Assembly (NCBI GenBank): GCA_003221825.1
Contig: QHUE01000091.1
Coordinates: 1-37,454, forward strand
Source of the DNA: Gemmatimonadota bacterium
Lineage (GTDB): Bacteria > Gemmatimonadota > Gemmatimonadetes > Gemmatimonadales > GWC2-71-9
Reading direction: 5' to 3'
DNA: 37,454 bases
The first letter of the stretch is position 1. Each line of letters opens with the position of its first letter. Below the pieces are notes generated by a model. That model saw nothing but the letters and a program-made list of their open reading frames with translations, was not told the DNA's origin and searched no databases. Made by a program: the position numbers and the translations under genes. Shown here piece by piece: positions 5,230 to 35,747 of this stretch.

Positions 5230-6227
5230 GCAACTGCAGCATACGAGGCCTCGAGCACCGCCGCGACCTGGGCGATATCGGCCATCGGGCGGGCGCGGTC
5301 ACCCGAATCGAGCGTGGTCGCGAAATCGTGAAACAGCCCGGCAAACCAGGTCGCGTACGCGGACTTGTCGAGATCGGCGGTATGGTCGAACGACTCCATC
5401 TGGCCGCCCTGCTCGAGCGTCAGGATGCCGCCGCTCCAGGTGATACTGCCGCGCTCGCCGATAAACCGGATCTCCGTCTCCCGTCGCCGCGCCGCCCAGG
5501 TGAGAAACATCGTCGCCATTCGATCGGGATACGAGAACACCAGCTGCGCCGTGTCTTCGACGTCGTAGCCGCCGTGGCGCAGGCGACCGGTCCACGCGCG
5601 CACCGCTTGCGGCGGCCCCGCGACGTCGAGGAGCTCGTAGACGAGGTGGGTACCGTGATCGAGGAGCACGCCGCCACGCCCGGCGGCGCGCCGGCCCCGC
5701 CACGGGACGTCGTCCCTGCCGGCGCCGGGATCGGCCGCGAGCCGATAGACCCGGAACTCCGCGAGATGCCAGCGGCCGATCACACCTTCGTCCAGCCAGC
5801 GTTTCACGCGCAGCCACACCGGATTGAAGCGGTACTGGTGACAGGGCATCACGACGCGACCCGCCTCGTGCGCCGCCGCGGCCAGGGTCGCGGCCTCGGC
5901 GCGGTTCACCGCCACCGGCTTCTCGCACAGGACGTGGTAGCCCTGCGACAGGCCCCAGAGCGATAGCTCCAGGTGCGATGCCGTCGGCGTGCAGATGTCC
6001 ACGAAGTCGATCGGACCGAGGTCGGCGAGCTGCTCGGGACGGGATAATAGAGGAATGCCGAGGAACGTCGACGGCGCCGACATCGCTTCCTCCACGATGC
6101 CGACGATGCGCAGCCGGGAGGCCACCTTCGGATCCGACTGGAACGCAGGGAGATGCCCGGAGCGCGCGATCCCGCCGAGCCCGAGCAGGACACCGCGATA
6201 GACCCGGGCGTCAGGCGAGCTGTGCAT
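5226..6227 (-). CDS. Gfo/Idh/MocA-family NAD(P)-dependent oxidoreductase, 333 aa
   Basis: N-terminal Rossmann segment VLLGLGGIARSGHLPAF, the conserved LCEKPVA (EKP) motif, and a C-terminal alpha/beta domain. Confidence 0.8.
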   Translation of the reverse strand: MHSSPDARVYRGVLLGLGGIARSGHLPAFQSDPKVASRLRIVGIVEEAMSAPSTFLGIPLLSRPEQLADLGPIDFVDICTPTASHLELSLWGLSQGYHVLCEKPVAVNRAEAATLAAAAHEAGRVVMPCHQYRFNPVWLRVKRWLDEGVIGRWHLAEFRVYRLAADPGAGRDDVPWRGRRAAGRGGVLLDHGTHLVYELLDVAGPPQAVRAWTGRLRHGGYDVEDTAQLVFSYPDRMATMFLTWAARRRETEIRFIGERGSITWSGGILTLEQGGQMESFDHTADLDKSAYATWFAGLFHDFATTLDSGDRARPMADIAQVAAVLEASYAAVA

Positions 6228-10727: not shown

Positions 10728-12111
<1,384 letters not shown>

Positions 12112-18803: not shown

Positions 18804-18828
18804 GGGGGAAAGATATTAGCTTGTAGCA

Positions 18829-18876
18829 GGCGATGGAGTTCGCCTTCAACCGCCCTCAGGGCTGATGACTCCTACC
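18829..18876 (+). promoter_or_regulatory. Fluoride riboswitch (crcB motif) aptamer, copy A, orphan
   Basis: GGCGATGGAGTTCGCCTTCAACCGCCCTCAGGGCTGATGACTCCTACC matches the crcB-motif pattern GGCGAUGGnGUUCGCC..AAC.GC-stem-GCUnAUGACnCCUAC. Identical to copy B at 45 of 48 positions (hand count). GATATT lies 11 nt upstream. There is no plus-strand gene downstream. It overlaps the last 7 codons of the minus-strand lipoprotein gene. Confidence 0.8.
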
Positions 18877-20280
18877 GATCACCGCATCGTCAGGAGTGAA
18901 CGCATAGCTGAACAACAGCGTCGTCACTCGGTCGCGGGTTGGGAGTGTCTGGACCGAGGTGGAGACGAGCTGGTACCCTCCCGGCACACTCTTGAACAGC
19001 TGTACCTGAACCGTCTCGGGATACCGGTTGCTCTTGATGTCCACCGAAATCCGGCTGGTCTTGCCGGTCATGCCGGTCGCCGGCGTCGCAAAGCGTGTGA
19101 TGGCGACGTCGTGCGTCCGCACCTGCAGGGTTCGCGTGATCGATCCCGTTCGACCATCGAATGTCGTGACCGTCAGCGTCACCTGGTAATCGCCGTCGAC
19201 CGCGTACCGATGCGTGGGGTTGAAACCCGTGCCCGCCGCCCCGTCGCCGAAATCCCACTGCCGCGTCTGAATCCCGACGCCGCCCGGATCGAACGACTGA
19301 TCGAAGAACTGCACCAGATCGAAGCTCGACGGATCGAACGGCTGGGTGAAGAAGTTCGCCTGCGGAGGGGGCGGCGGCTGGAGCGAGAACGTCGCAGTGC
19401 CGGGCTGATCGCTCCCGACCTGGAAGTAGTAGGTCTGCCCGGCAACCGCCGTGAAGGACACCGGGCCGCTGAAGCTGCTCGCGCAGCGCAGGAACGACAG
19501 ACTATTGAGCGAGGTGCCTTGGTAGACGGTGAGACCATCGAAGAACGGTGCCTGGAGACCGGCCGTAACCGCCTGCGTCGTCGTCGGAGTAAACCGGTAC
19601 CACACCGTTCTCGAATTGAAGAAGCAGAATGCCGGCTCGTTCGGTTCGCGCGTTGCAAAGTCGAAGACCGCTGTCGCCGTGAAGGGTATCCCCGGGGCCA
19701 GCTCCGCATCCGCAAAGTTGTCGTTGCCGCTTGGCGGTGGCGGGGGAGGAGGTGGCGGCGGTCCCGAGTCCTGCTGCAGACTGAAGACCGTCGGACCAGT
19801 CGCGCCGGCGGAATCCGAGATTTGGAAGAAGAACGCCGAGCCCGAATCGGCATTGAACGTGACCGGTCCAAAGTTCGAGTTACATCCCACCGGGATGAGC
19901 GTGTCGGCGCTGACGAAGTACGTCGAAAGGATCCCTGGGGCTGGACCGCGCAGTTGGGCGGTGAGTTGCACGGCACCCGGGGCCTGCGACACATAGACAT
20001 ACCAGACGGTGCGTGTCGGCGCCCCGATCGTGTCGTGACAGACCGACGTGACTTCGCCCGGTTCGACGGTGGCGTTCGTGACGTCCGTGCTGTCGAAGAA
20101 GGGCACGAACGGGATGAATCGCGCGCTGTCACGGTTGTCGTTGGGCGGGGCCGGCGATGCCGTGTCCTGCGCCACGACATCCGGACGGAGCGGCTGCAGC
20201 GGCGTTTCGCGCGTGCACGATGCAACGGCGAGTGCTGCCACAGCGGTGAAGGTGAGAAAGCGGGAAAATCGCGCGAGCAT
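18856..20280 (-). CDS. Secreted lipoprotein with two tandem PPC-like domains, a poly-Pro linker and a PKD domain, 474 aa
   Basis: ATG 20280 is preceded by AAGGAGG 7 nt upstream. Lipobox LAVASC. Two related ~130-aa domains (NDN..A ... TVWY.. ... FSLQ) are separated by a 10-residue proline run (PPPPPPPPPP). PKD signature WDFGDGAAGTGFNPTHRYAVDGDYQVTLTV. Confidence 0.85.
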   Translation of the reverse strand: MLARFSRFLTFTAVAALAVASCTRETPLQPLRPDVVAQDTASPAPPNDNRDSARFIPFVPFFDSTDVTNATVEPGEVTSVCHDTIGAPTRTVWYVYVSQAPGAVQLTAQLRGPAPGILSTYFVSADTLIPVGCNSNFGPVTFNADSGSAFFFQISDSAGATGPTVFSLQQDSGPPPPPPPPPPSGNDNFADAELAPGIPFTATAVFDFATREPNEPAFCFFNSRTVWYRFTPTTTQAVTAGLQAPFFDGLTVYQGTSLNSLSFLRCASSFSGPVSFTAVAGQTYYFQVGSDQPGTATFSLQPPPPPQANFFTQPFDPSSFDLVQFFDQSFDPGGVGIQTRQWDFGDGAAGTGFNPTHRYAVDGDYQVTLTVTTFDGRTGSITRTLQVRTHDVAITRFATPATGMTGKTSRISVDIKSNRYPETVQVQLFKSVPGGYQLVSTSVQTLPTRDRVTTLLFSYAFTPDDAVIGRSHQP

Positions 20281-20373
20281 GGATAGGCCTCCTTTGTAAA
20301 GGAGCTGCGATCGGACCGCGCGATTGTATATGGAGGGCGGCAAGCGAGCGTCAAGAAGCTATATTCTCCAACA

Positions 20374-20421
20374 GGCGATGGAGTTCGCCTTTAACCGCCC
20401 TACGGGCTGATGACTCCTACC
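20374..20421 (+). promoter_or_regulatory. Fluoride riboswitch (crcB motif) aptamer, copy B, upstream of crcB
   Basis: GGCGATGGAGTTCGCCTTTAACCGCCCTACGGGCTGATGACTCCTACC. TATATT (20360-20365) lies 8 nt upstream. It is followed by a terminator/SD platform and crcB. Confidence 0.9.
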
Positions 20422-20452
20422 CGAAACCACCAACGGCAGGAGTCTTTTCTTT
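20412..20452 (+). terminator. Riboswitch expression platform: terminator hairpin sharing the aptamer 3' strand
   Basis: GACTCCT (20412-20418, part of the aptamer) can pair with AGGAGTC (20438-20444), followed by TTTTCTTT. The AGGAG also serves as the SD for the TTG start at 20451. Confidence 0.5.
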
Positions 20453-20825
20453 GACTATCCTCTACATCGTCCTGGGCGGTGTCGCCGGAACATTGTCGCG
20501 CTACGGCCTCGAAGGTTGGATTCACGGCCGCATGGCGAGCGGCTTCCCACTGGGTACTCTGACTGTCAACATCGTCGGGTCCCTGCTCCTCGGGTTCATC
20601 CTGCGGATCGCAACCGGCGCGGTGGTGATCTCGCCCGACCTGCGGGCGGGTCTCACCATCGGCTTTTGCGGTGCCTTCACCACGATGAGCACGTTCAGCT
20701 ACGAGAGCGTCACCCTGCTCCACGACGGCGATTACCTTCGCGCCGTCCTCTACATGGGCGCAACGATCGGGGGCTGCGTCGTCGCGGTGGTCTTTGGAAC
20801 GGCGCTCGGCGACAAACTCCTGTGA
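20451..20825 (+). CDS. crcB: Fluoride ion channel CrcB/Fluc, 124 aa
   Basis: (TTG)TILYIVLGGVAGTLSRYGL..., GTLTVNIVGSLLLGF, GFCGAFTTMSTFSYE. Sits directly behind a fluoride riboswitch. Confidence 0.9.
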   Translation: MTILYIVLGGVAGTLSRYGLEGWIHGRMASGFPLGTLTVNIVGSLLLGFILRIATGAVVISPDLRAGLTIGFCGAFTTMSTFSYESVTLLHDGDYLRAVLYMGATIGGCVVAVVFGTALGDKLL

Positions 20826-24755: not shown

Positions 24756-25480
24756 GGCGCGACGCACCTCCCCCCCTGCCACACGATGCATGGGCTTACT
24801 TCTTTGATCTCGACGGGACGTTGCTCGACTTCACGGATCCGCCAGGTGCCGTCCGTATCGACGACGCGTTGCGCGCGCAGATCGCCCGCCTCCACGACAG
24901 GACGGGAGGCGCCGTGGCATTGATCAGTGGCCGCGCGCTCGCCGACATCGATGACCTGCTCGACGGCGTCCGTCTCCCGGTGGCGGGCCAGCACGGCACC
25001 GAGCGGCGCGACGCCCGCGGCCGCGTCTCGCATCACGACTTTCCGCACGCGCGTCTGGACTGGGCACACGCGCGCCTGGCGGAGGCGATCGCCGGCCGGG
25101 CCGGATTGCTGCTCGAACACAAGGGACTGTCGCTCGCCCTCCATTACCGCCGCGCGCCGCGCCTCGGCGGGTACGCGCACCGACTCGTCGGATCGCTGGC
25201 GCCCACCCTCGGCGCCGAATTCTGCATCCAGCCCGGGAAGCGGATCGTCGAAGTGAAGCCCGCCGGGAAGGACAAGGGCGTCGCCTTGGTGGAGTTCATG
25301 GCCGAGGAGCCCTTTCGCGGGCGCACGCCGGTCTTCGTCGGAGACGACCTCACGGACGAGTACGGCTTCGAGGCCGTGAACCGCCTGAGCGGCCACTCGA
25401 TCAAAGTGGGGGCGGGCCGCACGGTCGCCCGCTGGCGCCTGCCGCACGTGCGCGCGGTGCGGGAGTGGCTGGCATCGTGA
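24752..25480 (+). CDS. otsB: Trehalose-6-phosphate phosphatase (HAD-IIB), 242 aa
   Basis: YFFDLDGTLLDF (D-x-D), ALISGR, KDKG and VFVGDDLTDE. GTG 24752 overlaps the otsA TGA (GTGA). Confidence 0.85.
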   Translation: MRRDAPPPLPHDAWAYFFDLDGTLLDFTDPPGAVRIDDALRAQIARLHDRTGGAVALISGRALADIDDLLDGVRLPVAGQHGTERRDARGRVSHHDFPHARLDWAHARLAEAIAGRAGLLLEHKGLSLALHYRRAPRLGGYAHRLVGSLAPTLGAEFCIQPGKRIVEVKPAGKDKGVALVEFMAEEPFRGRTPVFVGDDLTDEYGFEAVNRLSGHSIKVGAGRTVARWRLPHVRAVREWLAS

Positions 25481-27273
25481 CCTCTCTCGACCTTGCCCTC
25501 ATCGGCAACGGGACCATCGGCGCCCTCGTCGATCCCGAGGGCGAGATCACCTGGGCCTGCTTCCCCCGCTTCGACGGCGATCCGATGTTCTGCTCGCTGC
25601 TCAAGCCGCGGACGGAGGGGGCACAGCGCGACGACATCGGCTTCTTCACGATCGAGCTGCTCGACCGCGTCACGACCGAGCAGCACTACCTGCACAACAC
25701 CCCGGTCCTCATCACGCGCATGACGGACTCCGCCGGCGCAGCGATCGAGATCAGCGATTTCGCGCCGCGCTTCGAGCACCACGGCCGGATCTTCTGCCCG
25801 ATGATGCTGGTGCGGCGCGTCCGGCGCATCGCGGGGCACCCGCGCATTCGCGTGCGCGCGCGGCCGGCGCAGAACTACGGCCAGCCGCTCTCCGCCACGA
25901 CCTCGGGCAGCAATCACATCCGCTACGTCGGGACCGGACTCGTCCTGCGGCTGACGAGCGACGCGCCCATCACGTCGATCCTCGAGGAGAACCCCTTGTT
26001 CCTCGACGACGCCGTGACTCTGGTGCTCGGGCCGGACGAAACGCTGCAGGACAGCGCCGACGACGTGGGTACGCGCTTTCTGGCCGAGACCACGGCGTAT
26101 TGGCGCGACTGGGTGCGCTCGCTCGCCATTCCGTTCGAGTGGCAGGACGCGGTGATCCGCGCCGCGATCACGCTGAAGCTCAACGTCTTCGAGGACACGG
26201 GCGCGATCATCGCCGCCGTCACGACGTCGATTCCCGAAGCGGCGGACAGCAGCCGCAACTGGGACTACCGCTTCTGCTGGCTGCGGGACGCGTACTTCGT
26301 CGTGAATGCCTTGAACCGCCTCGGCGCGACGCAGACGATGGAGCGGTACCTGGGCTTCATCCGCAACGTCGTCGCCGACGGCGCGGACCGGCGGCTCGAT
26401 CCGGTGTACACCGTCACGGGTCACCGGCTGCCGCCGGAACGGGTGGTGGAGTCGCTGGCGGGCTACCGCGGCATCGGGCCGGTGCGCGTGGGCAACCAGG
26501 CGGCGGAGCAATCGCAGCACGACGTGTACGGCTCGTCCATTCTCGCGGCCACGCACGTGTTCTACGACCGGCGGCTGATCCGGCAGGGCGATGAGTCGCT
26601 GTTCCGCCGGCTGGAGCCGCTGGGAGAGCGCGCGTTCCGCTCCTTCGATCAGCCGGATGCAGGGTTGTGGGAGCTGCGGGGCAGCACACGCGTGCACACG
26701 TTCTCCGCCGTGATGTGCTGGGTGGGGTGCGAGCGGTTGGGCCGCATCGCCAAGCAGCTCGGCCTCGAGGACCGCGCCAGCTACTGGTGCCAGCGCGCCC
26801 GCGAGCTGCACGAGGAGATTTCGCGCCGCGCGTGGAACGAGAAGCTGGGCACGTTCGTCGCCACGTTCGACGGCGATACCCTCGATGCCAGCCTGCTGCA
26901 GCTGAACGAGCTGTTCTTCGTCGCGGACGACGATCCGCGTTTTGTCGCGACGGTGCGCGCCATCGGGAAGCAGCTGAAACGGGGCGACTTCGTGTTCCGC
27001 TACACGACCCCCGACGATTTCGGCACGCCGGCGAACGCATTTCTGGTGTGCACGTTCTGGTACATCAACGCGCTGGCGTCGATCGGCGAGCGCGATGAGG
27101 CGCGCCGCATGTTCGAATACGTGCTGGCCTGTCGCAACCGCCACGGCCTGCTCGCCGAGCACATCGATCCCAAGACACGGGAGCAGTGGGGCAACTTCGT
27201 GCAGACTTACAGTATGGTGGGACTGATAAGCTCAGCGATTCGGTTGTCGCAACGGTGGGATCAAGCCTTCTAA
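25477..27273 (+). CDS. Glycoside hydrolase family 15 (glucoamylase/trehalase-type), ~598 aa
   Basis: LDLALIGNGTIGALVD..WACFPRFDGDPMF, SIPEAADSSRNWDYRFCWLRDA, and TFWYINAL. GTG 25477 overlaps the otsB TGA (GTGA). An alternative GTG lies at 25465. Confidence 0.8.
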   Translation: MTSLDLALIGNGTIGALVDPEGEITWACFPRFDGDPMFCSLLKPRTEGAQRDDIGFFTIELLDRVTTEQHYLHNTPVLITRMTDSAGAAIEISDFAPRFEHHGRIFCPMMLVRRVRRIAGHPRIRVRARPAQNYGQPLSATTSGSNHIRYVGTGLVLRLTSDAPITSILEENPLFLDDAVTLVLGPDETLQDSADDVGTRFLAETTAYWRDWVRSLAIPFEWQDAVIRAAITLKLNVFEDTGAIIAAVTTSIPEAADSSRNWDYRFCWLRDAYFVVNALNRLGATQTMERYLGFIRNVVADGADRRLDPVYTVTGHRLPPERVVESLAGYRGIGPVRVGNQAAEQSQHDVYGSSILAATHVFYDRRLIRQGDESLFRRLEPLGERAFRSFDQPDAGLWELRGSTRVHTFSAVMCWVGCERLGRIAKQLGLEDRASYWCQRARELHEEISRRAWNEKLGTFVATFDGDTLDASLLQLNELFFVADDDPRFVATVRAIGKQLKRGDFVFRYTTPDDFGTPANAFLVCTFWYINALASIGERDEARRMFEYVLACRNRHGLLAEHIDPKTREQWGNFVQTYSMVGLISSAIRLSQRWDQAF

Positions 27274-27417
27274 AAAAAGCGGGGACATGCAAAAGCTAGT
27301 CCACAGACGCACCGCGGGCTTCAGGCAATGGTTAACGGGACCACCCTAGCAAGGATTGTCCCGTTGACTCAAGACGGTTCACCGCTGCTGCGTCTGTGGC
27401 CTAGTCGTTGCATGTCC
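27274..27417. repeat. MITE-like imperfect palindromic element, copy 1 (~135-nt core)
   Basis: The termini GGGGACATGCAAAAGCTAG ... CTAGTCGTTGCATGTCC are inverted repeats. Internal arms share CCACAGACGCA/TGCGTCTGTGG and AACGGGAC/GTCCCGTT. It is related to the reverse complement of copy 2. Confidence 0.7.
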
Positions 27418-28981
27418 TAGCCTGTGAGGGCTGTGCACACAACGCGAGCGCAACTCCATTCGTCCAGCCAAATCCATCCTGCGTCGGGTACTCTCCTCCG
27501 CCTGCTTTCTTGTTCGTGTTGACGACGTCGTACTTCTCCATCATCCTCCCTGTCGCGCTGTAGGTGCGCTGAATCAGCGCGAGCCAGCGGCTCGCGGCTT
27601 TATCGGCCAGGTCGGCGCGGCCGTAGCGCCGCACTCCTTCGATCGCGAGCCACTCGAGTGGCGGCCAGCCGTTGGGCGCGTCCCACTGCTGTCCGGTGGG
27701 GATCTTCGTGGTCACGAAGCCCCCGGGACCGAGGAATTCCTGCTCGAGACGGAGCGCCACGTGCCGTCCCTGATCGGGCGTGGCGATCCCGAAATAAAGC
27801 GGTGCAGCGGCGGCGAGTGTCAGCCGGTCCCGCACCGCCTCTCCCGTGCGCCAGCGGCGGTCGTAGAAAAAGCCGTTCTCGTACATCGACAGGATCGCCT
27901 GCCGCCGCTGCTCCGCTTTCTGATTGAAGCGACGTGCGACCTCGGCATCACCGCCCGCATGCCGGAAAGCTCGCAGTGCGGCGATCGTGCGCTCGGCGTG
28001 GTACAGGAGACTGTTGAGGTCGACGGGAATCAGCTGTGTCGTCTCGAGCGTCCGCAAATCCTTGGGATCGCGCATCCAGCGGCTCGAGAAATCCCAGCCG
28101 CTTTCCGCCGTCGCCCGTGCCTCGCGATAGAAACTCGCGCGCAGTGACTCGGGCAGAGTCTCCCCGATCTCGACGTCGGGCCGGTACGATTCGGGCCGTG
28201 GCTCCGCGAGGTCGTCCCAGTAGCGATTCAGGATGACACCGTCCGGCATCCGCACGACCCGCCGATAGAACTCGCCCGGTTTCAGTCGATCGGCGCCGTC
28301 CATCCAGAACGCGTACTCTGTTTCGAGTGCGTCGAGATAGGGCAATGCTTGCGACGTGTCGGCCGCCGTCGCGTACAGGCTCACCATCGCGGCGAAGTAA
28401 GGCGGCTGGCTCCGGCTCAGATAGTAGGTGCGATTGCCGTTCGGGATGTGCCCGACCGTCGTGATCAGGTGCGCGAAGTTGTCCAGCATGTTCTTCACGA
28501 GGTCGGTGCGCCCGCTCTGCACCAGGCCGAGCATCGTGAAGTAGGAGTCCCAGTAATAGATCTCGCGGAAGCGGCCGCCCGGAACGACGTACGGACGTGG
28601 AAGCGGGATGAGCGAGGAACGTGGATCGCTCGAGTCCGGAGATCTGGTGAGCACCGGCCAGAGCGCGTTGATGTGCGTCACCATGCTTTGCGTCGCGACG
28701 CTGTGGTAGCCGTTTCCGGCCGGCTGCGGCAGGATGAAGTTCTGGTCCACAAACGCCCGCAGCACGAAGCCCGGCATGCGGCGTGCGGAATCGTAGCGCG
28801 CCTCGATCGTCGCCGGCGCGGATCGAGGACGCGCGTCGACGAACTCCTTGGAGTCGGGGAAGATTCCAGAGAGCTGGACGTCTGAGAACAACGAGCCGAT
28901 GTCGTGCGCGGGATCGTACGACGGTCGGACGGTCGGACGGCCCGTCGGGCGGCATGCGACGACAACGAAAAGCGCGGACAT
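27401..28981 (-). CDS. treA: Periplasmic trehalase (GH37), 526 aa from ATG 28981
   Basis: GH37 signatures PGGRFREIYYWDSYFT, QPPYF, ESGWDFSSRW, and QWDAPNGWPPLEW. N-terminus MSALFVVVAC (lipobox-like). Alternative in-frame starts are at 29095 (MQKLD..) and 29170. Confidence 0.85.
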   Translation of the reverse strand: MSALFVVVACRPTGRPTVRPSYDPAHDIGSLFSDVQLSGIFPDSKEFVDARPRSAPATIEARYDSARRMPGFVLRAFVDQNFILPQPAGNGYHSVATQSMVTHINALWPVLTRSPDSSDPRSSLIPLPRPYVVPGGRFREIYYWDSYFTMLGLVQSGRTDLVKNMLDNFAHLITTVGHIPNGNRTYYLSRSQPPYFAAMVSLYATAADTSQALPYLDALETEYAFWMDGADRLKPGEFYRRVVRMPDGVILNRYWDDLAEPRPESYRPDVEIGETLPESLRASFYREARATAESGWDFSSRWMRDPKDLRTLETTQLIPVDLNSLLYHAERTIAALRAFRHAGGDAEVARRFNQKAEQRRQAILSMYENGFFYDRRWRTGEAVRDRLTLAAAAPLYFGIATPDQGRHVALRLEQEFLGPGGFVTTKIPTGQQWDAPNGWPPLEWLAIEGVRRYGRADLADKAASRWLALIQRTYSATGRMMEKYDVVNTNKKAGGGEYPTQDGFGWTNGVALALCAQPSQARTCND

Positions 28982-29106
28982 GCAAAGACTAGGTGCGTAG
29001 ACGCAGCGGCGGACGCGCAGTCTTGAGGCAACGGGATAATCCCGCAACCTCAAGACCGTTGCCCGCCGTGCGTCTGCTGCGTCTAGCTTTTGCATGTCCC
29101 CGCTTT
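28967..29106. repeat. MITE-like imperfect palindromic element, copy 2 (~124-nt core), inverted relative to copy 1
   Basis: GGACATGCAAAGACTAG ... CTAGCTTTTGCATGTCCCCGC. The right end is the exact reverse complement of the copy 1 left end over 21 nt (GCGGGGACATGCAAAAGCTAG). Lies between the symporter-fusion stop (29112) and treA. Confidence 0.7.
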
Positions 29107-29111
29107 GTTTG

Positions 29112-32100
29112 TTAGGCAAACACGATCCACAGCACACCAAGCAGGGCCACGAGCAGCACGGAGAGCCCAACCTCGAACTTCCGTTGGCCGGCCGTCTCGC
29201 CCTCTTCCGACTTGCCGTAGGTGAGTCCTTCAGTCTTCTCGCGAGGCGGCGGCGGCGTCATCATGCTCACGATGAAAAGCACAAAGGTGCAGATCACGAA
29301 CAGCAAGACCGCGTAGTGAAGGAAGTTGATTGTGGCAATCCAATGCCACGGCGTGCCGGGCGTGAGACCACCGCCCGACGCTTTGTTCGTGAGCTCGAGA
29401 ATGAGGCGCAACAGACCGAGCACGAGCCCCGTCAGCAGCGAGGCAATCGCGCCGGCGCCGTTCAGCCGGCGGTAAAACAGGCCAAGCAGGAAGCAGGCCG
29501 CGATCGGCGGGGCGATATAGGCCTGAACACTCTGCAGGTAGATGTAAATCTGCGACGAGACGTACTTCATGAACGGAATCCACGCCAAGCCCAGAAACAC
29601 CATGACACCTGCGGAAATGCGGCCCACTTGCACGAGCTGCCCCTCGGTGGCTGCGGGGCGCATTTTTCGATAGACATCCCACGTCAGCAACGTGGAGCAC
29701 GCGTTGAAGGCGGAGGCCAGGGAGCTCATCAGCGCCGCGAGCATCCCTGCTAGCACCAGACCCTTGATCCCCGCCGGTAAAAGCCGCGTCACCAGCGTGG
29801 GGTAGGCGGAATCGGGATTGTTGCGTATTTCCGGGAACAGTGCCAGAGCCACGATGCCGGGCAACACGAAAATGAAGACGGGAAGAATCTTCAAATATCC
29901 GGCGAAGATCGTTCCGGTGCGCGCCTCTTTGATATTCTTCGCGGCGAGCACGCGCTGCACGATGTGCTGATCGGTACACCAGTACCAGATGCCCAGGATC
30001 GGCGCGCCGAAGATGATACCGGTCCACGGGAAGTCCGGGTGGCTGGACGGCTTCCACATCGAGAAGAATCCGGCCGGCACCGTTGCCTGGAGTGCCGAGA
30101 TGCCGCCCACGCGCGAGAGCCCGATGGCCATGAGGGTAATCGAGCCGAGAATCAGCACGATGGCCTGGAGCACCTCCGTGTAGACCACGGCGCGCAGTCC
30201 GCCGAAGATCGTATACAGGCCGGTGACGACGATGAGGACGATGGCCGCGGTGTAGAAATTCCACCCCGTGACCGCACGAATCACGACGCCGCCCGCATAC
30301 AGCGTCACGCTGATCTTCGTCAACACGTAGCCGATGACCGAGACCCAAGTGAAATACGTCCGCGCTGCGGAGTTGTACCGCTTCTCCAGAAACTCCGGCA
30401 TCGTATAGACGCCGCTCTTCAGGTAATACGGCACGAAGAGCCAGCCGAGCAGCATCAGAATGAGACAGGCGAGCCACTCGAAGTGGCCGACCGCGAGCCC
30501 GCTCCCCGCACCGGTGCCCGCCAACCCGACCAGGTGCTCGCTGCCGATGTTGGAGGCGAACAGGCTGGCGCCGACGGCGAACCACGCGACGGTGAGCGTC
30601 CACAACTGGACGTCTGAGCTCGAGCCGTAGCGCACCGCGCGCAGGGCTCCTCCTTCGAACTTGTAACTCCACAACTCCGCGTACTGCAATCCGGAGCGGT
30701 CGACCACGCCCCGGACGGAATCCACAGCGCCGGGGCGGTTGCGCGTCGCGAGCGCCGCGAGCAGCACATTCACTTCGCGGCCCCACACGACGCGCGGGGA
30801 ATGATACAGATCGCGCTCGAACATGTCCCACACTTTGGGCGTGGCGTAGGCGTCGTTGGCAACCGCCAGTCCCACGCCGTCGATGAAGAGCCCGACAGGA
30901 TACGGAAGCAGGAACGGGCGGAGTAACTCAGCCTCGCGTGCCGAGTCCTGGTGCTCGAGCAGCAGCCACATCGCCGGATCGGTGCTCATCACCGGGATCG
31001 GCTGCCCCGCGCTGTCGAGCGACACGGCCGGGAAACGCAGCGTGTCGGCCGGAAAGCCGCCGCCTGCGAGCACAGAATCCCAATGCGCGCGCTCCGGCTC
31101 GGGCAACGCGGCGAGCTTGGCGCGTACGCGCGTCTCGACCTCGGCGGGCGCGAGCGCGACCATGAAGTGGCGCCCGGTCCCGCGCCACACCTCCGCCGCG
31201 CGCGCGATCTCGGCGGCGCGATCGATCCCGGGCTCGCCCATCGCCCGCAGCGCGCTGTCGATCGTGCCGATGGCACGGAGCGCCGCGGGCACCCACACCA
31301 CGTTCACATCGAATGCGAGGCACCCGCCCGCGTAGCCGACCCGGCTGTCCCGCCAGCTCCCCGGATGGCACCAGCCATCCGCGTCGCGCTTGAAGCTCAC
31401 GAGGTTCGTCGCCACCGGCGCGCGGGCGTAGGGCGCCGCGCGCCGGGCGACGAACGCGAGATTCTTGCGGAGCGCCGCGCCCCAGCGCCGCACGAATGCG
31501 CGCTTGCGCGCGTCGGCCACGCCGGCAGCGGCGAAGTAATGGCCCGCGACGACCGGCAGCTGGAAGTCGTCGTCCACCATCCAGTAGTTCTCGCGCGTCG
31601 CCTGGAGATTGCCGAGCAGCGCGCGGTTGCCCGTCCTGAGAAACTCGGCGCCGTTCTCGCGAATCGCCTGGCCGCCGAGCGCTTCCTCGTGGCTGACTTC
31701 GCCGCTGGGCGCGAGCTTGGCGAGCGCCGCGCCCATCACGAATTCCGGCATCGTATCGGACCAGACCGGCTCCATGAGCAGCGCGGTCATCAGCATGTCG
31801 CGGCCGAAGTACGTCGCATACGTCGGCAACCCCGCCATCAGCTTCTGGCGCGAGCTGAGCAGCTCGAACCCGCGGATCTCGCGCTCCACGCGCTGGGACT
31901 TGGCGGAATCGGCGAAGTGTCGGAATGCGGTGTTGAAGATCTGATCGCGATCGAGGGGATCGAGGGCCGGGCCGTCGGTGGCGAGTTCGACCAGCAGCTC
32001 GACCGGCTCGGCGCTGCGCGGCCGGACGGTCAGCACACGCCCGGAGAGCAGCGCGCGGGATCGCCTGGTGTCGCCGCTGAGCGTGAGCCACATGTGGTTC

Positions 32101-32720
32101 CGGGCATCGAGGCTCGGCTGATAGACCTGCGCCCGCCAGCGCGAGCCGCTGTGTGTCAGGGACAGCAGCGGAGCCAACCGGCTGGGATATGACCCGCCGA
32201 GCCGCTGGGCGAGCGCGGTGAACTCCGGCGGCACGAATGGCGGCGCGTTGATCGAATCGCTCACGCGTCCCGCGTATCCGAAATCGCGCTCGATGCGCAT
32301 CGAGCCCAAGAGGAACTGCCCGATCCGAGTTGACCGCCCGCCCTGCACCGTCAGCGAGTAGCGTAACCAGCGCCGAGCGCCCCGACCGTCGCGACCGCCG
32401 GTCGCACCCACCGTCGCTGACCCTGCCCCGAACGCGACCGCCGCGACCGCCGCAGTTGCTTCTTGACCGCCCCGACCGCCCGAATCTCGAACGGTGAAAC
32501 CGATACTTTCATTGAGCCCATCCGCCCACAGGTGCACCACGCGGCCTGTTTTCCCTTCGATGTAGATCTCGACTGAGTTGCCGCGGGAGTCGCGATACAA
32601 CCGGGCCGTGTAGCCCTCGTAGGCCGCGGGATCGTCGAGCCCGGGCGTCGGGAATTCGAGGACGGGTGGGGTGTCCCGCGCAGGTGCAGACTGCATCAGC
32701 AGCAGAAAGGCCAGAACCAT
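29112..32720 (-). CDS. In-frame chimera: signal-peptide-bearing glycosidase-like (amylo-alpha-1,6-glucosidase/GDE_C-like) domain joined to an SSS-family sodium:solute symporter lacking its first TM helix, 1202 aa
   Basis: The N-terminal ~690 aa carry MVLAFLLLMQSAPA, YATYFGRDMLMTALL, VVWGREVNVL and SSDVQLWT. From about nt 30590 downstream the sequence is vSGLT/SGLT-like (AWFAVGASLFASNIGSEHLVGLAGTG ... YWCTDQHIVQRVLAAK ...). The usual first helix and the YFLAGRSL segment are absent. The domain call for the N-terminal part is by eye only. Confidence 0.6.
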   Translation of the reverse strand: MVLAFLLLMQSAPARDTPPVLEFPTPGLDDPAAYEGYTARLYRDSRGNSVEIYIEGKTGRVVHLWADGLNESIGFTVRDSGGRGGQEATAAVAAVAFGAGSATVGATGGRDGRGARRWLRYSLTVQGGRSTRIGQFLLGSMRIERDFGYAGRVSDSINAPPFVPPEFTALAQRLGGSYPSRLAPLLSLTHSGSRWRAQVYQPSLDARNHMWLTLSGDTRRSRALLSGRVLTVRPRSAEPVELLVELATDGPALDPLDRDQIFNTAFRHFADSAKSQRVEREIRGFELLSSRQKLMAGLPTYATYFGRDMLMTALLMEPVWSDTMPEFVMGAALAKLAPSGEVSHEEALGGQAIRENGAEFLRTGNRALLGNLQATRENYWMVDDDFQLPVVAGHYFAAAGVADARKRAFVRRWGAALRKNLAFVARRAAPYARAPVATNLVSFKRDADGWCHPGSWRDSRVGYAGGCLAFDVNVVWVPAALRAIGTIDSALRAMGEPGIDRAAEIARAAEVWRGTGRHFMVALAPAEVETRVRAKLAALPEPERAHWDSVLAGGGFPADTLRFPAVSLDSAGQPIPVMSTDPAMWLLLEHQDSAREAELLRPFLLPYPVGLFIDGVGLAVANDAYATPKVWDMFERDLYHSPRVVWGREVNVLLAALATRNRPGAVDSVRGVVDRSGLQYAELWSYKFEGGALRAVRYGSSSDVQLWTLTVAWFAVGASLFASNIGSEHLVGLAGTGAGSGLAVGHFEWLACLILMLLGWLFVPYYLKSGVYTMPEFLEKRYNSAARTYFTWVSVIGYVLTKISVTLYAGGVVIRAVTGWNFYTAAIVLIVVTGLYTIFGGLRAVVYTEVLQAIVLILGSITLMAIGLSRVGGISALQATVPAGFFSMWKPSSHPDFPWTGIIFGAPILGIWYWCTDQHIVQRVLAAKNIKEARTGTIFAGYLKILPVFIFVLPGIVALALFPEIRNNPDSAYPTLVTRLLPAGIKGLVLAGMLAALMSSLASAFNACSTLLTWDVYRKMRPAATEGQLVQVGRISAGVMVFLGLAWIPFMKYVSSQIYIYLQSVQAYIAPPIAACFLLGLFYRRLNGAGAIASLLTGLVLGLLRLILELTNKASGGGLTPGTPWHWIATINFLHYAVLLFVICTFVLFIVSMMTPPPPREKTEGLTYGKSEEGETAGQRKFEVGLSVLLVALLGVLWIVFA

Positions 32721-32812
32721 GGGCCTACATACTCCGCCCCCTGACCGCCCTTGACAAGGTCTCACGGGGGCGGCATTTCGGATGGCATAACTGTCTTCTT
32801 GAGGTCCACGCG

Positions 32813-35747
32813 ATGAGATTCGTCCGACACGCAGTTCCCGTTTTCGCGCTGCTGTCCCTCACGGCATTCCCTCTCACCGCGCAAAACACCGGCACGGTCA
32901 GAGGACAGGTCGTCGACAGCACCACACGGCAGGCGCTCGCCGGTGTCATCATCCAAGTCGAAGGCACGCAGCTGCAGACTGCCAGTGGTAACGACGGCAG
33001 CTACACGCTCGCGTCCGTTCCTGCGGGAAGCGTGCTGGTGCGTGCGACCCGAATCGGGTACGCGCCGCAGCGGCAGTCCGTCACGGTGACAACGGGCGGA
33101 ACCGCCGAAGCGCAGTTCGCGCTTACCCCGCAAGCCTCGCTCCTCGAAGCGGTCGTCGTGACGGGGTACGGGACGCAGCGGCGCGAGGCCATCACCGGAT
33201 CGGTCTCGACCATCAATCCGGCGCAGGCCAACGTCGGCGTGACGACCAACGTCACGCAAATGCTCTCGGGTCGCGCGGCGGGCGTCGATATCACGCTGAA
33301 CAACGGCGAGCCCGGCGCGGGATCGCAGATTCTGATCCGCGGCGGCAGCTCGATCAGCAACAGCAACGATCCGCTCTACGTGATCGACGGCGTGCCGATC
33401 AATAACGTCGCGACCGAACCCCAGGGGATGAGCGGGGTGGTCGGGACGCCGGCGCTGCCTCGCAATCCGCTCAACCTGCTGAATCCCTCCGACATCGCTT
33501 CGATCACCGTTCTCAAAGACGCCTCGGCGACCGCCATTTACGGCAGCCGCGCCGCCAACGGCGTCATCCTGGTCGAAACGAAAAAGGGCACGGGCGGCGG
33601 CGGGCCGAGCATCGAGTACGATTCCTACGCCGCGGCGTCCTCGCCGGCACGGCGTCTCGATGTGCTCGATGGCGACGAGTACCGGGCCTACGTGAACCCC
33701 CAGTTCGTCACGTGGCGATCGGATTCGACCGCCTGTGCTGGACGTCCTGCGTGCGCGACCGGCTTTGCGGATTCGTCCGGCGGCTTCGGTGGGATCAAGC
33801 CGTATGTCCTCGGCACCGCGAATACGGACTGGGAACGGGCGGTCACGCGCACGGGGGTCACGCACAACCACAACCTGTCGTTCTCCGGCGGCACCGAGGA
33901 CACGCGCTATCGGGCGTCGCTCAACTACATGAAGGATGACGGCGTCGCGCTCTCGAGCACGCTGCAGCGGATTCAGGGCAGGCTGGCCGGAACGCATCGC
34001 GCGCTGGACAACCGGCTGCGGCTCGGCGTCAACGTGACGACGTCGCGCGTCAACAATACGTATCTGACGTTCGACAACACGGGCGGCTTCGAAGGCGGGG
34101 TGTTCCAGAACGTCGCCATCTTCGATCCGACCCAGCCGATCACCTTCACCGACGCGACCGGGACGCATTTCTACGAAGGCGGCGGCAGCTCGGTGCGTAA
34201 TCCCGTGGCGCTGGCAAAACAGCTGATCGATATCGGCCAGACAACCCGCACCCTCGGCAACGCGACCGCGGAGCTGGATATCGCGGGAGGGCTCACCGGT
34301 CAGGTCACGGTGGGGTTGGACCATGCGAGCGGCGGGCGCCAGACGTACTATCCGAAGGAGAGTCCGATCGGCGACGCGCTCGGCGGCGGGGTTGCGCGCC
34401 TGGTAGCAGAGCGTGCTCGTCTCCTTCTTTTCGCGCGCCAACTTCGGCTACAAGAACAAGTACTTCCTCACCGCCGCGTTGCGGTATGACGGCTCCTCCA
34501 AATTCGCGGCGGGCCACCAGTGGTCGTCATTCCCGGGCATTTCCGCTTCGTGGCACATGAGCGACGAGGGCTTCATGCAGAGCTCGCCGTTCTCAGACCT
34601 CCGCGTGCGCGCCGGTTGGGGCGTGCAAGGCAACCCCGGCATCCCGGCGTACTCCTCGTTGGCGTTGCTCGGCGCCGGCGGCGGTGGTACGTACACCTGG
34701 GGCGACGCGCCGCAGACCGGCGTCGCAGGAATTCAGAACCCCAATCCCGACCTCAAGTGGGAGCGGACGGCGCAGTTTGACCTCGGCGTCGACTTCGGAC
34801 TGATGAGCAATCGTCTGACGGGAAGCGTCGAATACTACATCAAGAACACGTCCGATCTGTTGCTGTCCGTCAAGGTGCCGCAGCCGGCCGCCGTGGAAGA
34901 GCGGCTCGAGAACGTCGGCAAGCTGCGCAATCGCGGCGTGGAATTGTCGCTCGATGCGCTCGCGATCTCGCGGCCGTCGTTGACCTGGCGGGCCGGCATC
35001 ACCTTCGCGGCGTCCCGCAACAAGGTGACGAACCTCGGATCCCGCGGGACGATCACTTCCGGCGGCGTCAGCGGTCAGGGCCAATCGGGCCAGGTCTCGC
35101 AGCTCATCGCTCCCGGATTGCCCCTCGGGACGTTCTACGGCCCGGTGTTCCTCGGCGTGGATGCGAACGGGAAGCAGCTCTTCGCGTGCAGCACCCCGAA
35201 TACGCCCGCGTCAAACTGTAGCAACGGCAGCACAATCAATGGGTCGGGACCGGGCGCCGGGGACTACCAGGTGATCGGGAACGCCAATCCCGATTTCACG
35301 CTCGGTTTCCACAACCAGATCACCTTTGGCAAGCTCGATCTGAGCTTCCTGATTCGGGCGTCGGTCGGACAGGACGTCTTCAACAATACGGCGCTCGTCT
35401 ACTCCACCAAGGGGAATGCGCTGCAGGGCAAGAACTTCCTCCGCCCCGCCCTGACCGACGGAATCGGGCTGCATGAACCGGCCATCTTCTCGTCACTGTG
35501 GATCGAGAACGGCTCTTTCGTGCGGCTGCAAAACATCACGCTGGAGTATACGCTCAACCTGCCGATGCTCCGCTCGGTGCAGAGCGCGCGGGTGTACGTA
35601 TCGGCTGACAATCTGCTGCTGCTGACCGGTTATTCGGGCCTCGATCCGGAAGTCTACGCCAGCTCCGGTCTGGCGTCGCGCGGGATCGATTATCTCAGCT
35701 ATCCACGGCCCCGTACCGTGACCGGTGGCCTTCGCCTGACGTTCTGA
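32813..35747 (+). pseudogene. SusC/RagA-type TonB-dependent outer-membrane receptor, interrupted by a frameshift near 34404-34415
   Basis: Signal peptide MRFVRHAVPVFALLSLTAFPLTAQ, CarboxypepD_reg-like domain (GTVRGQVVD..GSYTL), and plug (VVVTGYGTQRREAITGSV.., LYVIDGVP, ITVLKDASATAIYGSRAANGVILV). The barrel continues in another frame from ..VLVSFFSRANFGYKNKYFLTAALRYDGSSKF to the C-terminal ..RTVTGGLRLTF. The first frame stops at 34489. The second frame has a TAG at 34401-34403. Confidence 0.65.

Follow-up and report, generated by a model that had tools for sequence, protein, structure and literature searches.

Why is a single trehalase gene held so closely between two inverted palindromes that its stop codon lies in one and its first ATG in the other? 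The gene, treA, lies on contig QHUE01000091.1 of a Gemmatimonadota bacterium (assembly GCA_003221825.1), and the window analysed here was the whole 37,454-nt stretch of DNA at positions 1 to 37,454 of that contig. The window was ~67% G+C, contained SusC/SusD genes, and had its nearest protein homologues in Gemmatimonadales. Around treA the order was otsA, otsB, a GH15 glucoamylase/trehalase-like gene (plus strand), copy 1 of the palindrome, treA (minus strand), copy 2, and an open reading frame (ORF) that ends in a sodium:solute symporter (SSF) domain (minus strand). The explanation given about an even chance of being right is that an old insertion resembling a MITE (miniature inverted-repeat transposable element) has been retained at each place as a gene-boundary hairpin, terminator-like and slowly flipping. 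Quasi-palindromic MITE-like elements of ~135 nt would have been inserted long ago at ~12 gene boundaries, and would thereafter have been inherited vertically and held by purifying selection, without being mobile today.

The two repeats and the parts of copy 1 were located as follows.

27274–27426, no strand assigned: copy 1 with its outer stem extension of 8–9 nt (core 27283–27417), scoring 168 bits over the full length of covariance model R1.
28967–29108, no strand assigned: copy 2 with its outer stem extension (core 28976–29099), scoring 111 bits with R1 and folding into a hairpin of −91 to −98 kcal/mol.
27283–27299, plus strand: outer terminal inverted repeat of copy 1, GGACATGCAAAAGCTAG.
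27401–27417, minus strand: inner terminal inverted repeat of copy 1, GGACATGCAACGACTAG, encoding the TreA residues T-C-N-D and the stop codon TAG (27401–27403).
27305–27317, plus strand: box 1, AGACGCACCGCGG, which pairs with box 1', CCGCTGCTGCGTCT, at 27382–27395.
27332–27367, plus strand: stem-loop at the apex, TTAACGGGACCACCC-loop-GGATTGTCCCGTTGA, in which a C/T mismatch is conserved.
27272–27278, minus strand: seven consecutive A as read on the plus strand; in the treA transcript they form a U7 tract right after the hairpin.

Copy 1 was a near-perfect palindrome of 135 nt (27283–27417) that starts with GGACATGCAAAAGCTAG and ends with CTAGTCGTTGCATGTCC, and copy 2 was one of 124 nt (28976–29099) that starts with GGACATGCAAAGACTAG and ends with CTAGCTTTTGCATGTCC. 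As a first-pass annotation of the sequence had described, both copies start with GGACATGCAAA..CTAG and end with CTAG..TTGCATGTCC, and they lie in opposite intrinsic orientation. The 11-mer GGACATGCAAA, with at most one mismatch allowed, occurred four times in the window, each time at a repeat end; 0.27 occurrences were expected from shuffled sequences, and four were reached in 0 of 100 shuffles. Copy 1 matched the reverse complement of copy 2 better than copy 2 itself, with a central gap of 15 columns, and the common 21-mer GCGGGGACATGCAAAAGCTAG was exact (27279–27299 against the reverse complement of 29083–29103). Each copy folded as a long hairpin on either strand, with energies of −78 to −98 kcal/mol and z-scores of −7.6 to −12.4 (−80 kcal/mol and z = −8 for the hairpin of copy 1), and none of 200 shuffles was as stable. 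The polarity of an element comes from extra bases in box 1'. The outer-flank motif AAAAGCG(C/G), said in the same annotation to precede three of the four ends, was exact at two of them (27275–27282, AAAAGCGG; 28968–28975, AAAAGCGC); the outer flank of the third end was CAAAGCGG (reverse complement of 29100–29107), and the fourth end, inside treA, was without the motif. The A7 run takes in the AA of the GH15 stop codon TAA (27271–27273). In agreement with what had been read from the letters, the covariance model found no other copy in the window and Pfam scans of the main window ORFs found no transposase; these scans found no recombinase either.

Relatives were searched with the pattern GGACATGCAA-N95-125-TTGCATGTCC, in one genome per species and then in metagenome contigs. 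The scan of species-representative genomes gave 19 loci, 14 of them with family copies, on 13 contigs from 9 Gemmatimonadota metagenome-assembled genomes (MAGs); locus L009 was a half-degenerate copy at site G. Loci L001, L003, L006, L012, and L015 lay outside Gemmatimonadota and were set aside as unrelated palindromes that carry the 10-mers by chance. The metagenome contig scan gave 113 loci, which were mostly family members, with ~90 copies in soil contigs. The repeat family proposed in the first-pass annotation was borne out by these further copies: the elements are short, dispersed palindromes that end in terminal inverted repeats and code for nothing of their own. When the 106 copies in Gemmatimonadota contigs were clustered by their flanks, they fell at only ~12 orthologous sites, whose neighbours were labelled by running Pfam on the flanking genes.

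Site A (copy 1 of the window): between the convergent 3' ends of treA and the GH15 gene; 21 copies plus variants, with orthologues of copy 1 in 21 other contigs.
Site B (copy 2 of the window): between the stop codon of the SSF symporter ORF and treA, both genes read in the same direction; 11 copies, with orthologues of copy 2 in at least 11 contigs.
Site C: between divergent genes for an enoyl-CoA hydratase and an mtnA-like protein; 30 copies.
Site D: between DUF2780 and DUF2914 genes; 12 copies.
Site E: between convergent genes for crcB and an outer membrane protein; 5 copies.
Site G: adjoining an ABC-2 permease gene; 6 copies.
Site H: between genes for an M28 peptidase and a ComEA-like protein, both read in the same direction; 4 copies.
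Site I: adjoining a long ORF with a TonB-receptor-like C-terminus (a label given without a Pfam run); 4 copies.
Sites J and J2: adjoining an S8 peptidase gene; 5 copies.
Sites K and F: neighbours not annotated; 2 copies and 1 copy.

The elements were 124–141 nt long (~150 nt with the outer stem) and had no element-specific ORF, and size classes of 40, 63, 80, 100, 115, 124, 128, and 133–141 nt were seen. At both ends of all family copies the terminal sequence was GGACATGCAAAnnCTAG, preceded by AAAAGCGN. The consensus at the junction of flank and element was AAAAGCGN|GGACATGC, and the flank part, AAAAGCGN, present on both sides, gave each element an A-run and a T-run, with four or more T on both strands. 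A MAG held at most three full-length copies and this window two, which is low for a MITE. The same sites were occupied in different species, and interior identity was 0.80–0.95 within a site and 0.55–0.80 between sites (0.62–0.67 for A against B on the same contig). The copies thus group by site and not by genome, which means that their dispersal is older than the split of these lineages and that no homogenisation across sites has taken place.

Over 702 kb, the window together with 99 loci, covariance model R1 gave no new sites, only neighbouring sites and short derivatives. No Rfam family matched the elements, either at the gathering score or at E values up to 5; copy 1 matched no plasmid in BLASTN; and the pattern scan of viral contigs gave one unrelated palindrome and no family copy. 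In the literature search no interspersed repeat family was found described for Gemmatimonadota. The family is undescribed, and its occurrence is limited to one clade of Gemmatimonadales from soil.

The effect of the two copies on treA was read from the surrounding genes.

27401–28981, minus strand: treA, a GH37 trehalase gene (Pfam Trehalase, E = 7.5e-139), counted from the first ATG, which lies in the inner repeat of copy 2.
25465–27273, plus strand: GH15 glucoamylase/trehalase-like gene (Pfam Glyco_hydro_15 and TREH_N), convergent with treA and the last of the otsA-otsB-GH15 run.
29112–32765, minus strand: ORF upstream of treA that ends in a sodium:solute symporter domain (Pfam SSF), in synteny with L020–L022.
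27274–27439, no strand assigned: 166-nt block from the GH15 stop codon to the treA codons for ...GVALAL, missing from the empty-site relatives L138 and L137.

The first-pass annotation stated that the repeats bracket treA exactly, and this proved to be an understatement. The treA stop codon (27401–27403) and the last five sense codons lay within the inner end of copy 1, and the first ATG (28979–28981) lay within the inner end of copy 2. The treA frame continued without a stop across copy 2, reached another in-frame ATG (29093–29095) in the outer repeat, and ran on to 29170. The stop codon of the SSF ORF was 12 nt from the core of copy 2.

Site A was empty in L137 and L138, where TreA ends ...GVALALLKGL(I/V)PPLR.... 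In L138, treA and the GH15 gene overlap tail to tail by ~40 nt, and the TreA tail is antisense to the GH15 C-terminus SQRWDQAF. The 166-nt block of the window encodes the new TreA tail C-A-Q-P-S-Q-A-R-T-C-N-D and the stop codon. At the C-terminus, the 120 closest TreA homologues almost all had TCKN, TCKD, or TCND, a translation of the terminal repeat. Since most of the distant homologues and the empty-site relatives are without this tail, the C-terminal Cys-x-Cys tail of TreA was taken to be element-derived. Copy 1 would thus have split two formerly overlapping genes, and would now provide the C-terminal residues of TreA, its stop codon, and a hairpin with U7 on the treA transcript.

Site B was empty in L020, L021, L023, L029, and L117. 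In many relatives, these included, the ATG of treA overlaps the SSF stop codon (TGATG), and a standard lipoprotein signal peptide, for example MKRPCVVRRASCVALLLTLAC, stands at the start of TreA. In site-B-filled lineages the element replaces the 5' end of treA, and in none of the filled lineages examined did the element interrupt the treA frame. Gene-caller starts for TreA varied (MQKLD..., LRDYP..., and MSALL...), and the shortest, MSALLVAC in P0004, was too short for a signal peptide. Read from the frame and the start calls, TreA translation probably starts inside the site-B element, and copy 2 would have taken over the treA 5' end and supplied its first ATG or ATGs. For annotation, the elements account for the inconsistent trehalase start calls.

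Many lineages had site A filled and site B empty. The occurrence of filled and empty sites in relatives shows that both copies of the window are insertions, as the first-pass annotation had supposed. They would exemplify an insertion that resolves a tail-to-tail gene overlap, and one from which a housekeeping enzyme receives its start codon, its C-terminal tail, and its stop codon.

Several variants of these sites were also observed. The tail-to-tail region of treA and GH15 lay at 5427–5468 in L138 and at 2040–2079 in L137. In L137 the ots-GH15 genes were gone and only a remnant of the GH15 3' end was left, which persists because it encodes the TreA tail. In L008 (MAG AG34, ~2020–2110), compared with L086, a 68-nt deletion fused the inner end of copy 2 to the codons for YDPAHD and took out the signal peptide of TreA together with its lipobox; what is left of the ORF begins in the element, in another frame, and its product may be a cytoplasmic trehalase or the gene a pseudogene. 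The site-A element of L021 had shrunk to a 40-nt hairpin (11631–11670) made of an end, TTGCGT, and an end. The ATG of its right end was the called start of the next gene, PBP_like_2 (MAALFF...), a second case of an element end as a start codon; the window is without that gene. The TreA homologues P0030, P0036, P0045, P0084, and P0077, which have no site-B element, had an N-terminus with two or three tandem copies of the 10-residue sequence MKRPCVVRRA. Even without an element, the treA 5' end is a repeat-prone, hypervariable spot.

When site-A lineages were compared in pairs, fourfold-degenerate sites in treA and GH15 were typically 0.50–0.60 identical, whereas element interiors, from which the 10-nt ends fixed by the search pattern were left out, were 0.81–0.99 identical. 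Between L011 and L107, for example, identity was 0.56 at treA fourfold sites, 0.60 at GH15 fourfold sites, and 0.983 in the element. The conserved island was sharp-edged: on the treA side the adjacent 50 nt were 0.52–0.62 identical and the element 0.98–0.99. Such edges do not allow ordinary recombination tracts as an explanation. Of 147 element columns, 80 were at least 90% conserved (~0.98 within and between sites), and 20 of these 80 were fixed by the search pattern. The ~60 non-ascertained columns were still ~98% conserved, both within and between sites. The other 67 columns were 0.53–0.89 identical within a site (0.53 at site C and 0.76 at site A), and the low end of this range nears the fourfold level.

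The invariant boxes were found on both arms and consisted of the ends, CTAG, AGACGCACCGCGG with the box it pairs with, and, at the apex, ACGGGAC..ACCC / GGGT.GTCCCGT. By RNAalifold none of 30 consensus pairs was compensatory, all being invariant or changed on one side. Folding energies and G-U counts, compared between the sense and antisense strands, gave no consistent bias indicating strand-specific RNA selection. This pattern of sequence change indicates purifying selection that acts on the sequence boxes and not merely on their pairing. An unusually clean example would be provided of a MITE-like insertion that was kept instead of decaying, with boxes ~98% conserved and neighbouring synonymous sites near saturation.

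As a separate observation, the fourfold identities of treA and GH15 were discordant in some pairs (0.53 in treA and 0.82 in GH15 for L008 and L038; 0.79 in treA and 0.54 in GH15 for L010 and L107). These discordant divergences indicate frequent homologous recombination with breakpoints near the element.

Through the few markers that differ between its arms, every element has a polarity of its own. With the flanking genes as reference, the site-A element lay one way in 11 contigs and the other way in 10, with large score gaps such as 110/62 and 56/135. For five site-A copies, column identity was 80% when they were aligned by gene order and 92% when they were aligned by intrinsic polarity. In neighbour-joining trees of 11 lineages, at least five orientation changes were required on the GH15 tree and at least three on the treA tree. 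The box-1 and apical markers flipped independently, and all four state combinations occurred at site C. In the site-A lineage L117 the apical module alone was flipped, and symmetric variants existed in which one arm was copied onto the other.

Among 67 contig pairs with flanks at least 97% identical, none differed in orientation, and occupancy was the same too. These pairs argue against both an assembly artefact and a fast switch. An artefact was also rejected because the perfect outer repeat is only 10–17 nt, far below assembly k-mers, and because independent assemblies agree. The orientation change is thus no fast switch, and the marker pattern does not match excision and re-insertion of the whole element. 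The markers fit nested inversion and arm-to-arm conversion, which may have occurred by template switching or recombination within the quasi-palindrome. We infer that the rare orientation changes, including the nested ones, would come from recombination or template switching between the palindrome arms and not from transposition. The recurrent nested inversions in place would then document naturally occurring template switching in quasi-palindromes over evolutionary time.

The proposed function of the elements was derived from their position and shape. Each element makes up the entire intergenic space and consists of a long GC-rich hairpin with an A-run before it and a T-run after it; the stop codons, Shine-Dalgarno sequences, or start codons of the neighbours abut the elements or fall inside them. 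A hallmark of an intrinsic terminator was present in copy 1, where the stem is followed by U7 on the treA strand; the hairpin is far longer than that of a typical terminator. The deletion derivatives of 40, 63, 80, and 100 nt were all still hairpins with A and T tracts, the 40-nt end-to-end version being that of L021. The remnant in L137 was the apical hairpin alone and resembled an ordinary terminator. The element would most probably act as a two-way transcript-end or insulator hairpin, that is, as an intrinsic-terminator-like element or an mRNA-end stabiliser. Since the boxes are invariant in sequence and not merely paired, a sequence-specific partner that reads them is probable.

Several points weigh against this retained-hairpin explanation. 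The evidence for a terminator or insulator role is anatomical. The first-pass annotation had offered a terminator or stabiliser on the basis of the same folds, and the anatomy agrees with it, but the simple terminator scan did not call the elements, and terminator counts in the window matched those of shuffled sequences, with no excess. The scan misses the elements because of its loop limit of 8 nt. Compensatory changes would be expected in the stems of a plain structural hairpin; here the stems are invariant instead and show none, so that the conservation is not fully explained by structure alone. The element at site C has a divergent gene on each side, with the two Shine-Dalgarno sequences adjoining its ends, which is unlike a pure terminator. 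The search pattern demanded two perfect 10-nt ends, and the sample therefore favours well-kept copies and undercounts decayed copies and divergent relatives. Finally, a MITE origin is suggested by terminal inverted repeats, dispersal, and filled and empty sites, and neither a target-site duplication nor a partner transposase was found with them. The conserved flanks AAAAGCGN and NCGCTTTT were inverted, not direct, and therefore lengthen the stem; nothing was conserved beyond position −9. At the site-A junction a possible TA was indistinguishable from the bases of the Leu codon and the stop codon. The target-site duplications looked for were thus not demonstrable in the flanks or at the empty-site junctions. 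In 880 kb of loci no distant pair of terminal repeats able to flank a transposase was found, and no transposase either.

The main rival, unlikely on balance yet worth serious attention, is that the elements are protein-binding DNA or cruciform sites (for a regulator, a nucleoid protein, or a domesticated transposase) or carry outward promoters as in Correia elements, with the hairpin being secondary. It would agree with the ~60 non-ascertained columns that are invariant on both arms, equally in paralogous and orthologous copies, with the lack of compensatory changes and of strand bias in folding, and with a function that seems tolerant of either orientation. The element at site C fills a divergent intergenic region, with both Shine-Dalgarno sequences within ~10 nt of its ends, so that promoters must be inside the element or transcripts must cross it. 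Correia elements do have promoters and an IHF site (PMC3184786). However, the promoter scan gave no sigma-70-like promoter in or near the elements, and the −35-like hexamers in the arms were not conserved between sites. No candidate binding protein was found, and the neighbour genes had no common functional theme. The genes beside sites A, E, G, and J2 converge on the element with their 3' ends, an implausible place for a promoter or operator.

A somewhat more doubtful proposal goes beyond a set of leftover hairpins. The ~12 sites would form a small network of cis sites derived from a domesticated MITE, in which a sequence-specific factor reads the boxes on both arms, the sites set transcript boundaries or the expression of adjacent genes, and flips rewire them. 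If so, the slow nested flips would occasionally shift the effect to another neighbour, or alter the C- or N-terminal residues that the element donates.

It is improbable that the elements are neutral selfish MITEs whose similarity comes from recent spread or from repeated element-specific replacement. Small size, terminal inverted repeats, dispersal, the lack of coding capacity, filled and empty orthologous sites, and internal deletion derivatives would all be expected of such elements. Neutrality is nevertheless difficult to reconcile with boxes conserved at ~98% beside fourfold sites that are 50–60% identical, or with the sharp edges of the conserved island; by population-genetic reasoning, arm-to-arm conversion leaves the neutral substitution rate unlowered. 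Recent spread is contradicted by copies that group by site and by the same sites being filled across species, and recent mobility is for these reasons not supported.

Invertons, that is, phase-variable switches acted on by a site-specific recombinase at common terminal repeats, were considered very improbable. Bacteroides promoter invertons share repeats in a comparable way, and here ~12 sites carry the same terminal repeats and both orientations occur at one site in near-equal numbers. Nevertheless, none of the 67 near-identical contig pairs, from independent assemblies, differed in orientation, the breakpoints were nested at several depths instead of being confined to the terminal repeats, and no recombinase was present in the window. 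The interior is almost palindromic, so that a flip alters very little. A structured non-coding RNA acting in trans was given equally little credence. Its very stable folds and conserved sequence would suit such an RNA, but folding energy and G-U pairs showed no strand preference, either orientation relative to the neighbour genes was tolerated, and no promoter, Rfam family, or covariation was found. The composite mobile unit or invertible treA segment proposed in the first-pass annotation, which two copies in opposite intrinsic orientation around a single gene had suggested, has next to no chance and is refuted for the sampled lineages: the treA segment was never inverted, all junctions, 21 at site A and 11 at site B, were of the type SSF-B-treA 5' or treA 3'-A-GH15, with no hybrid such as an inverted segment would produce, the gene order (SSF, treA, GH15) and the orientation of treA were constant in all contigs holding these junctions and the same in relatives with and without elements, treA was syntenic where both elements were absent, and the two copies, only 0.62–0.67 identical, were inserted separately.

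Some resemblances noted along the way were dropped. A promoter picked by eye in one arm, TTGACC-N18-TAGTCT, was not conserved between sites, and CTAGnnTTTG, taken as a Bacteroidetes −7 box, had the wrong spacing. The MetJ-box resemblance AGACGTCT in the L020 remnant was dismissed as a coincidence. The elements were also compared with an integron attC site or gene cassette; their ends are GGACATGC...GCATGTCC and not RYYYAAC ... GTTRRRY, synteny is conserved, and there is no cassette array.

The elements belong to the class of interspersed palindromic MITE-like repeats, within which they are unusual in their low copy number, box-level purifying selection, and recurrent in-place inversion. They share with MITEs their size, terminal inverted repeats, dispersal, and filled and empty sites; signs of recent transposition were not seen, the copies grouping by site and all 67 near-identical pairs sharing occupancy and orientation. 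Among known repeats, ERIC elements have a low copy number in some genomes and form size classes by internal deletions, and Correia elements number hundreds per genome. The present family is like ERIC, Correia/CREE, SPRITE, and RPE in its size, shape, and habit (PMC2229807, PMC3184786, PMC3049150, PMC2649163).

ERIC/IRU elements (~127 bp) are likewise imperfect palindromes of similar length that lie in intergenic regions and are co-transcribed with their neighbours; their transcripts form long stem-loops, and fusions with adjacent ORFs occur (PMC2229807, PMC3184786). They have no sequence similarity to the present family and belong to a different phylum. ERIC elements also have 7-bp terminal repeats, 5'-TA-3' termini, and a target-site duplication (PMC2229807), whereas the terminal repeats here are 17–25 nt. 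The effect of ERIC on mRNA stability depends on orientation (PMC2229807), while both orientations persist at the same site here.

The Correia/CREE/NEMIS elements of Neisseria (~104–157 bp) are similar in size, have terminal inverted repeats of 24–26 bp, adjoin gene ends, form long hairpins, and occur in deletion size classes of 107 and 155 bp (PMC2229807, PMC3184786, PMC2649163). In contrast to them, recent strain mobility, TA duplication, an IHF site, and outward promoters (PMC2649163, PMC3184786) were not found in the present family.

SPRITE elements are interspersed, look like oversized intrinsic terminators, and have AAAA/TTTT ends. They are present in 30 copies near gene 3' ends, a target-site duplication was not established for them, and they were proposed to be co-opted terminators (PMC3049150). 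Unlike the present elements, they are AT-rich, with an 18-bp stem, a long U-rich tract, and no full-length multi-box palindrome, and neither orthologous conservation nor in-place inversion was described for them.

The RPEs of Rickettsia (105–146 bp) are palindromic repeats that became protein-coding sequence (PMC2229807). RPEs lie in frame within conserved proteins, whereas only termini are affected here, by a C-terminal tail with its stop codon and by a start codon with an N-terminal leader. REP/REPIN sequences are hairpin-forming extragenic repeats with long vertical inheritance (PMC3116915). REPINs are doublets of short REP units with the GTAG motif, present in hundreds of copies and linked to RAYT. 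The present elements, in contrast, have no REP substructure, their arms are not REP-like palindromes, they occupy ~12 sites, and no RAYT was seen in 880 kb. A repeat family is thereby added from a poorly studied, abundant soil phylum.

Minor observations were made elsewhere in the window. Two fluoride riboswitches were found on the plus strand at 18820–18881 and 20365–20426, with Rfam scores of 63 and 66 bits. They were ~94% identical over ~70 nt, the downstream GGAG included. The second precedes crcB (20451–20825) and a DUF190 gene, and the first is followed only by a minus-strand gene with a PKD domain (18856–20343). In relatives nadE and crcB are adjacent, which suggests that insertion of a 1.5-kb gene was accompanied by duplication of the riboswitch.

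The SusC-like TonB-dependent receptor was found in two overlapping plus-strand ORFs, 32666–34489 with the CarbopepD_reg and Plug domains and 34413–35747 with the beta-barrel. In relatives it is a single gene of 1024–1032 residues, and the split form is either a frameshift pseudogene or a sequence error. The SSF symporter at 29112–32765 (minus strand) was one ORF of 1217 residues, fused with an upstream protein of unknown function. In L020–L022 the symporter and the upstream protein are encoded by two separate genes, one of 704–722 and one of 536–543 residues, which overlap by 4 nt in L020 and L022.

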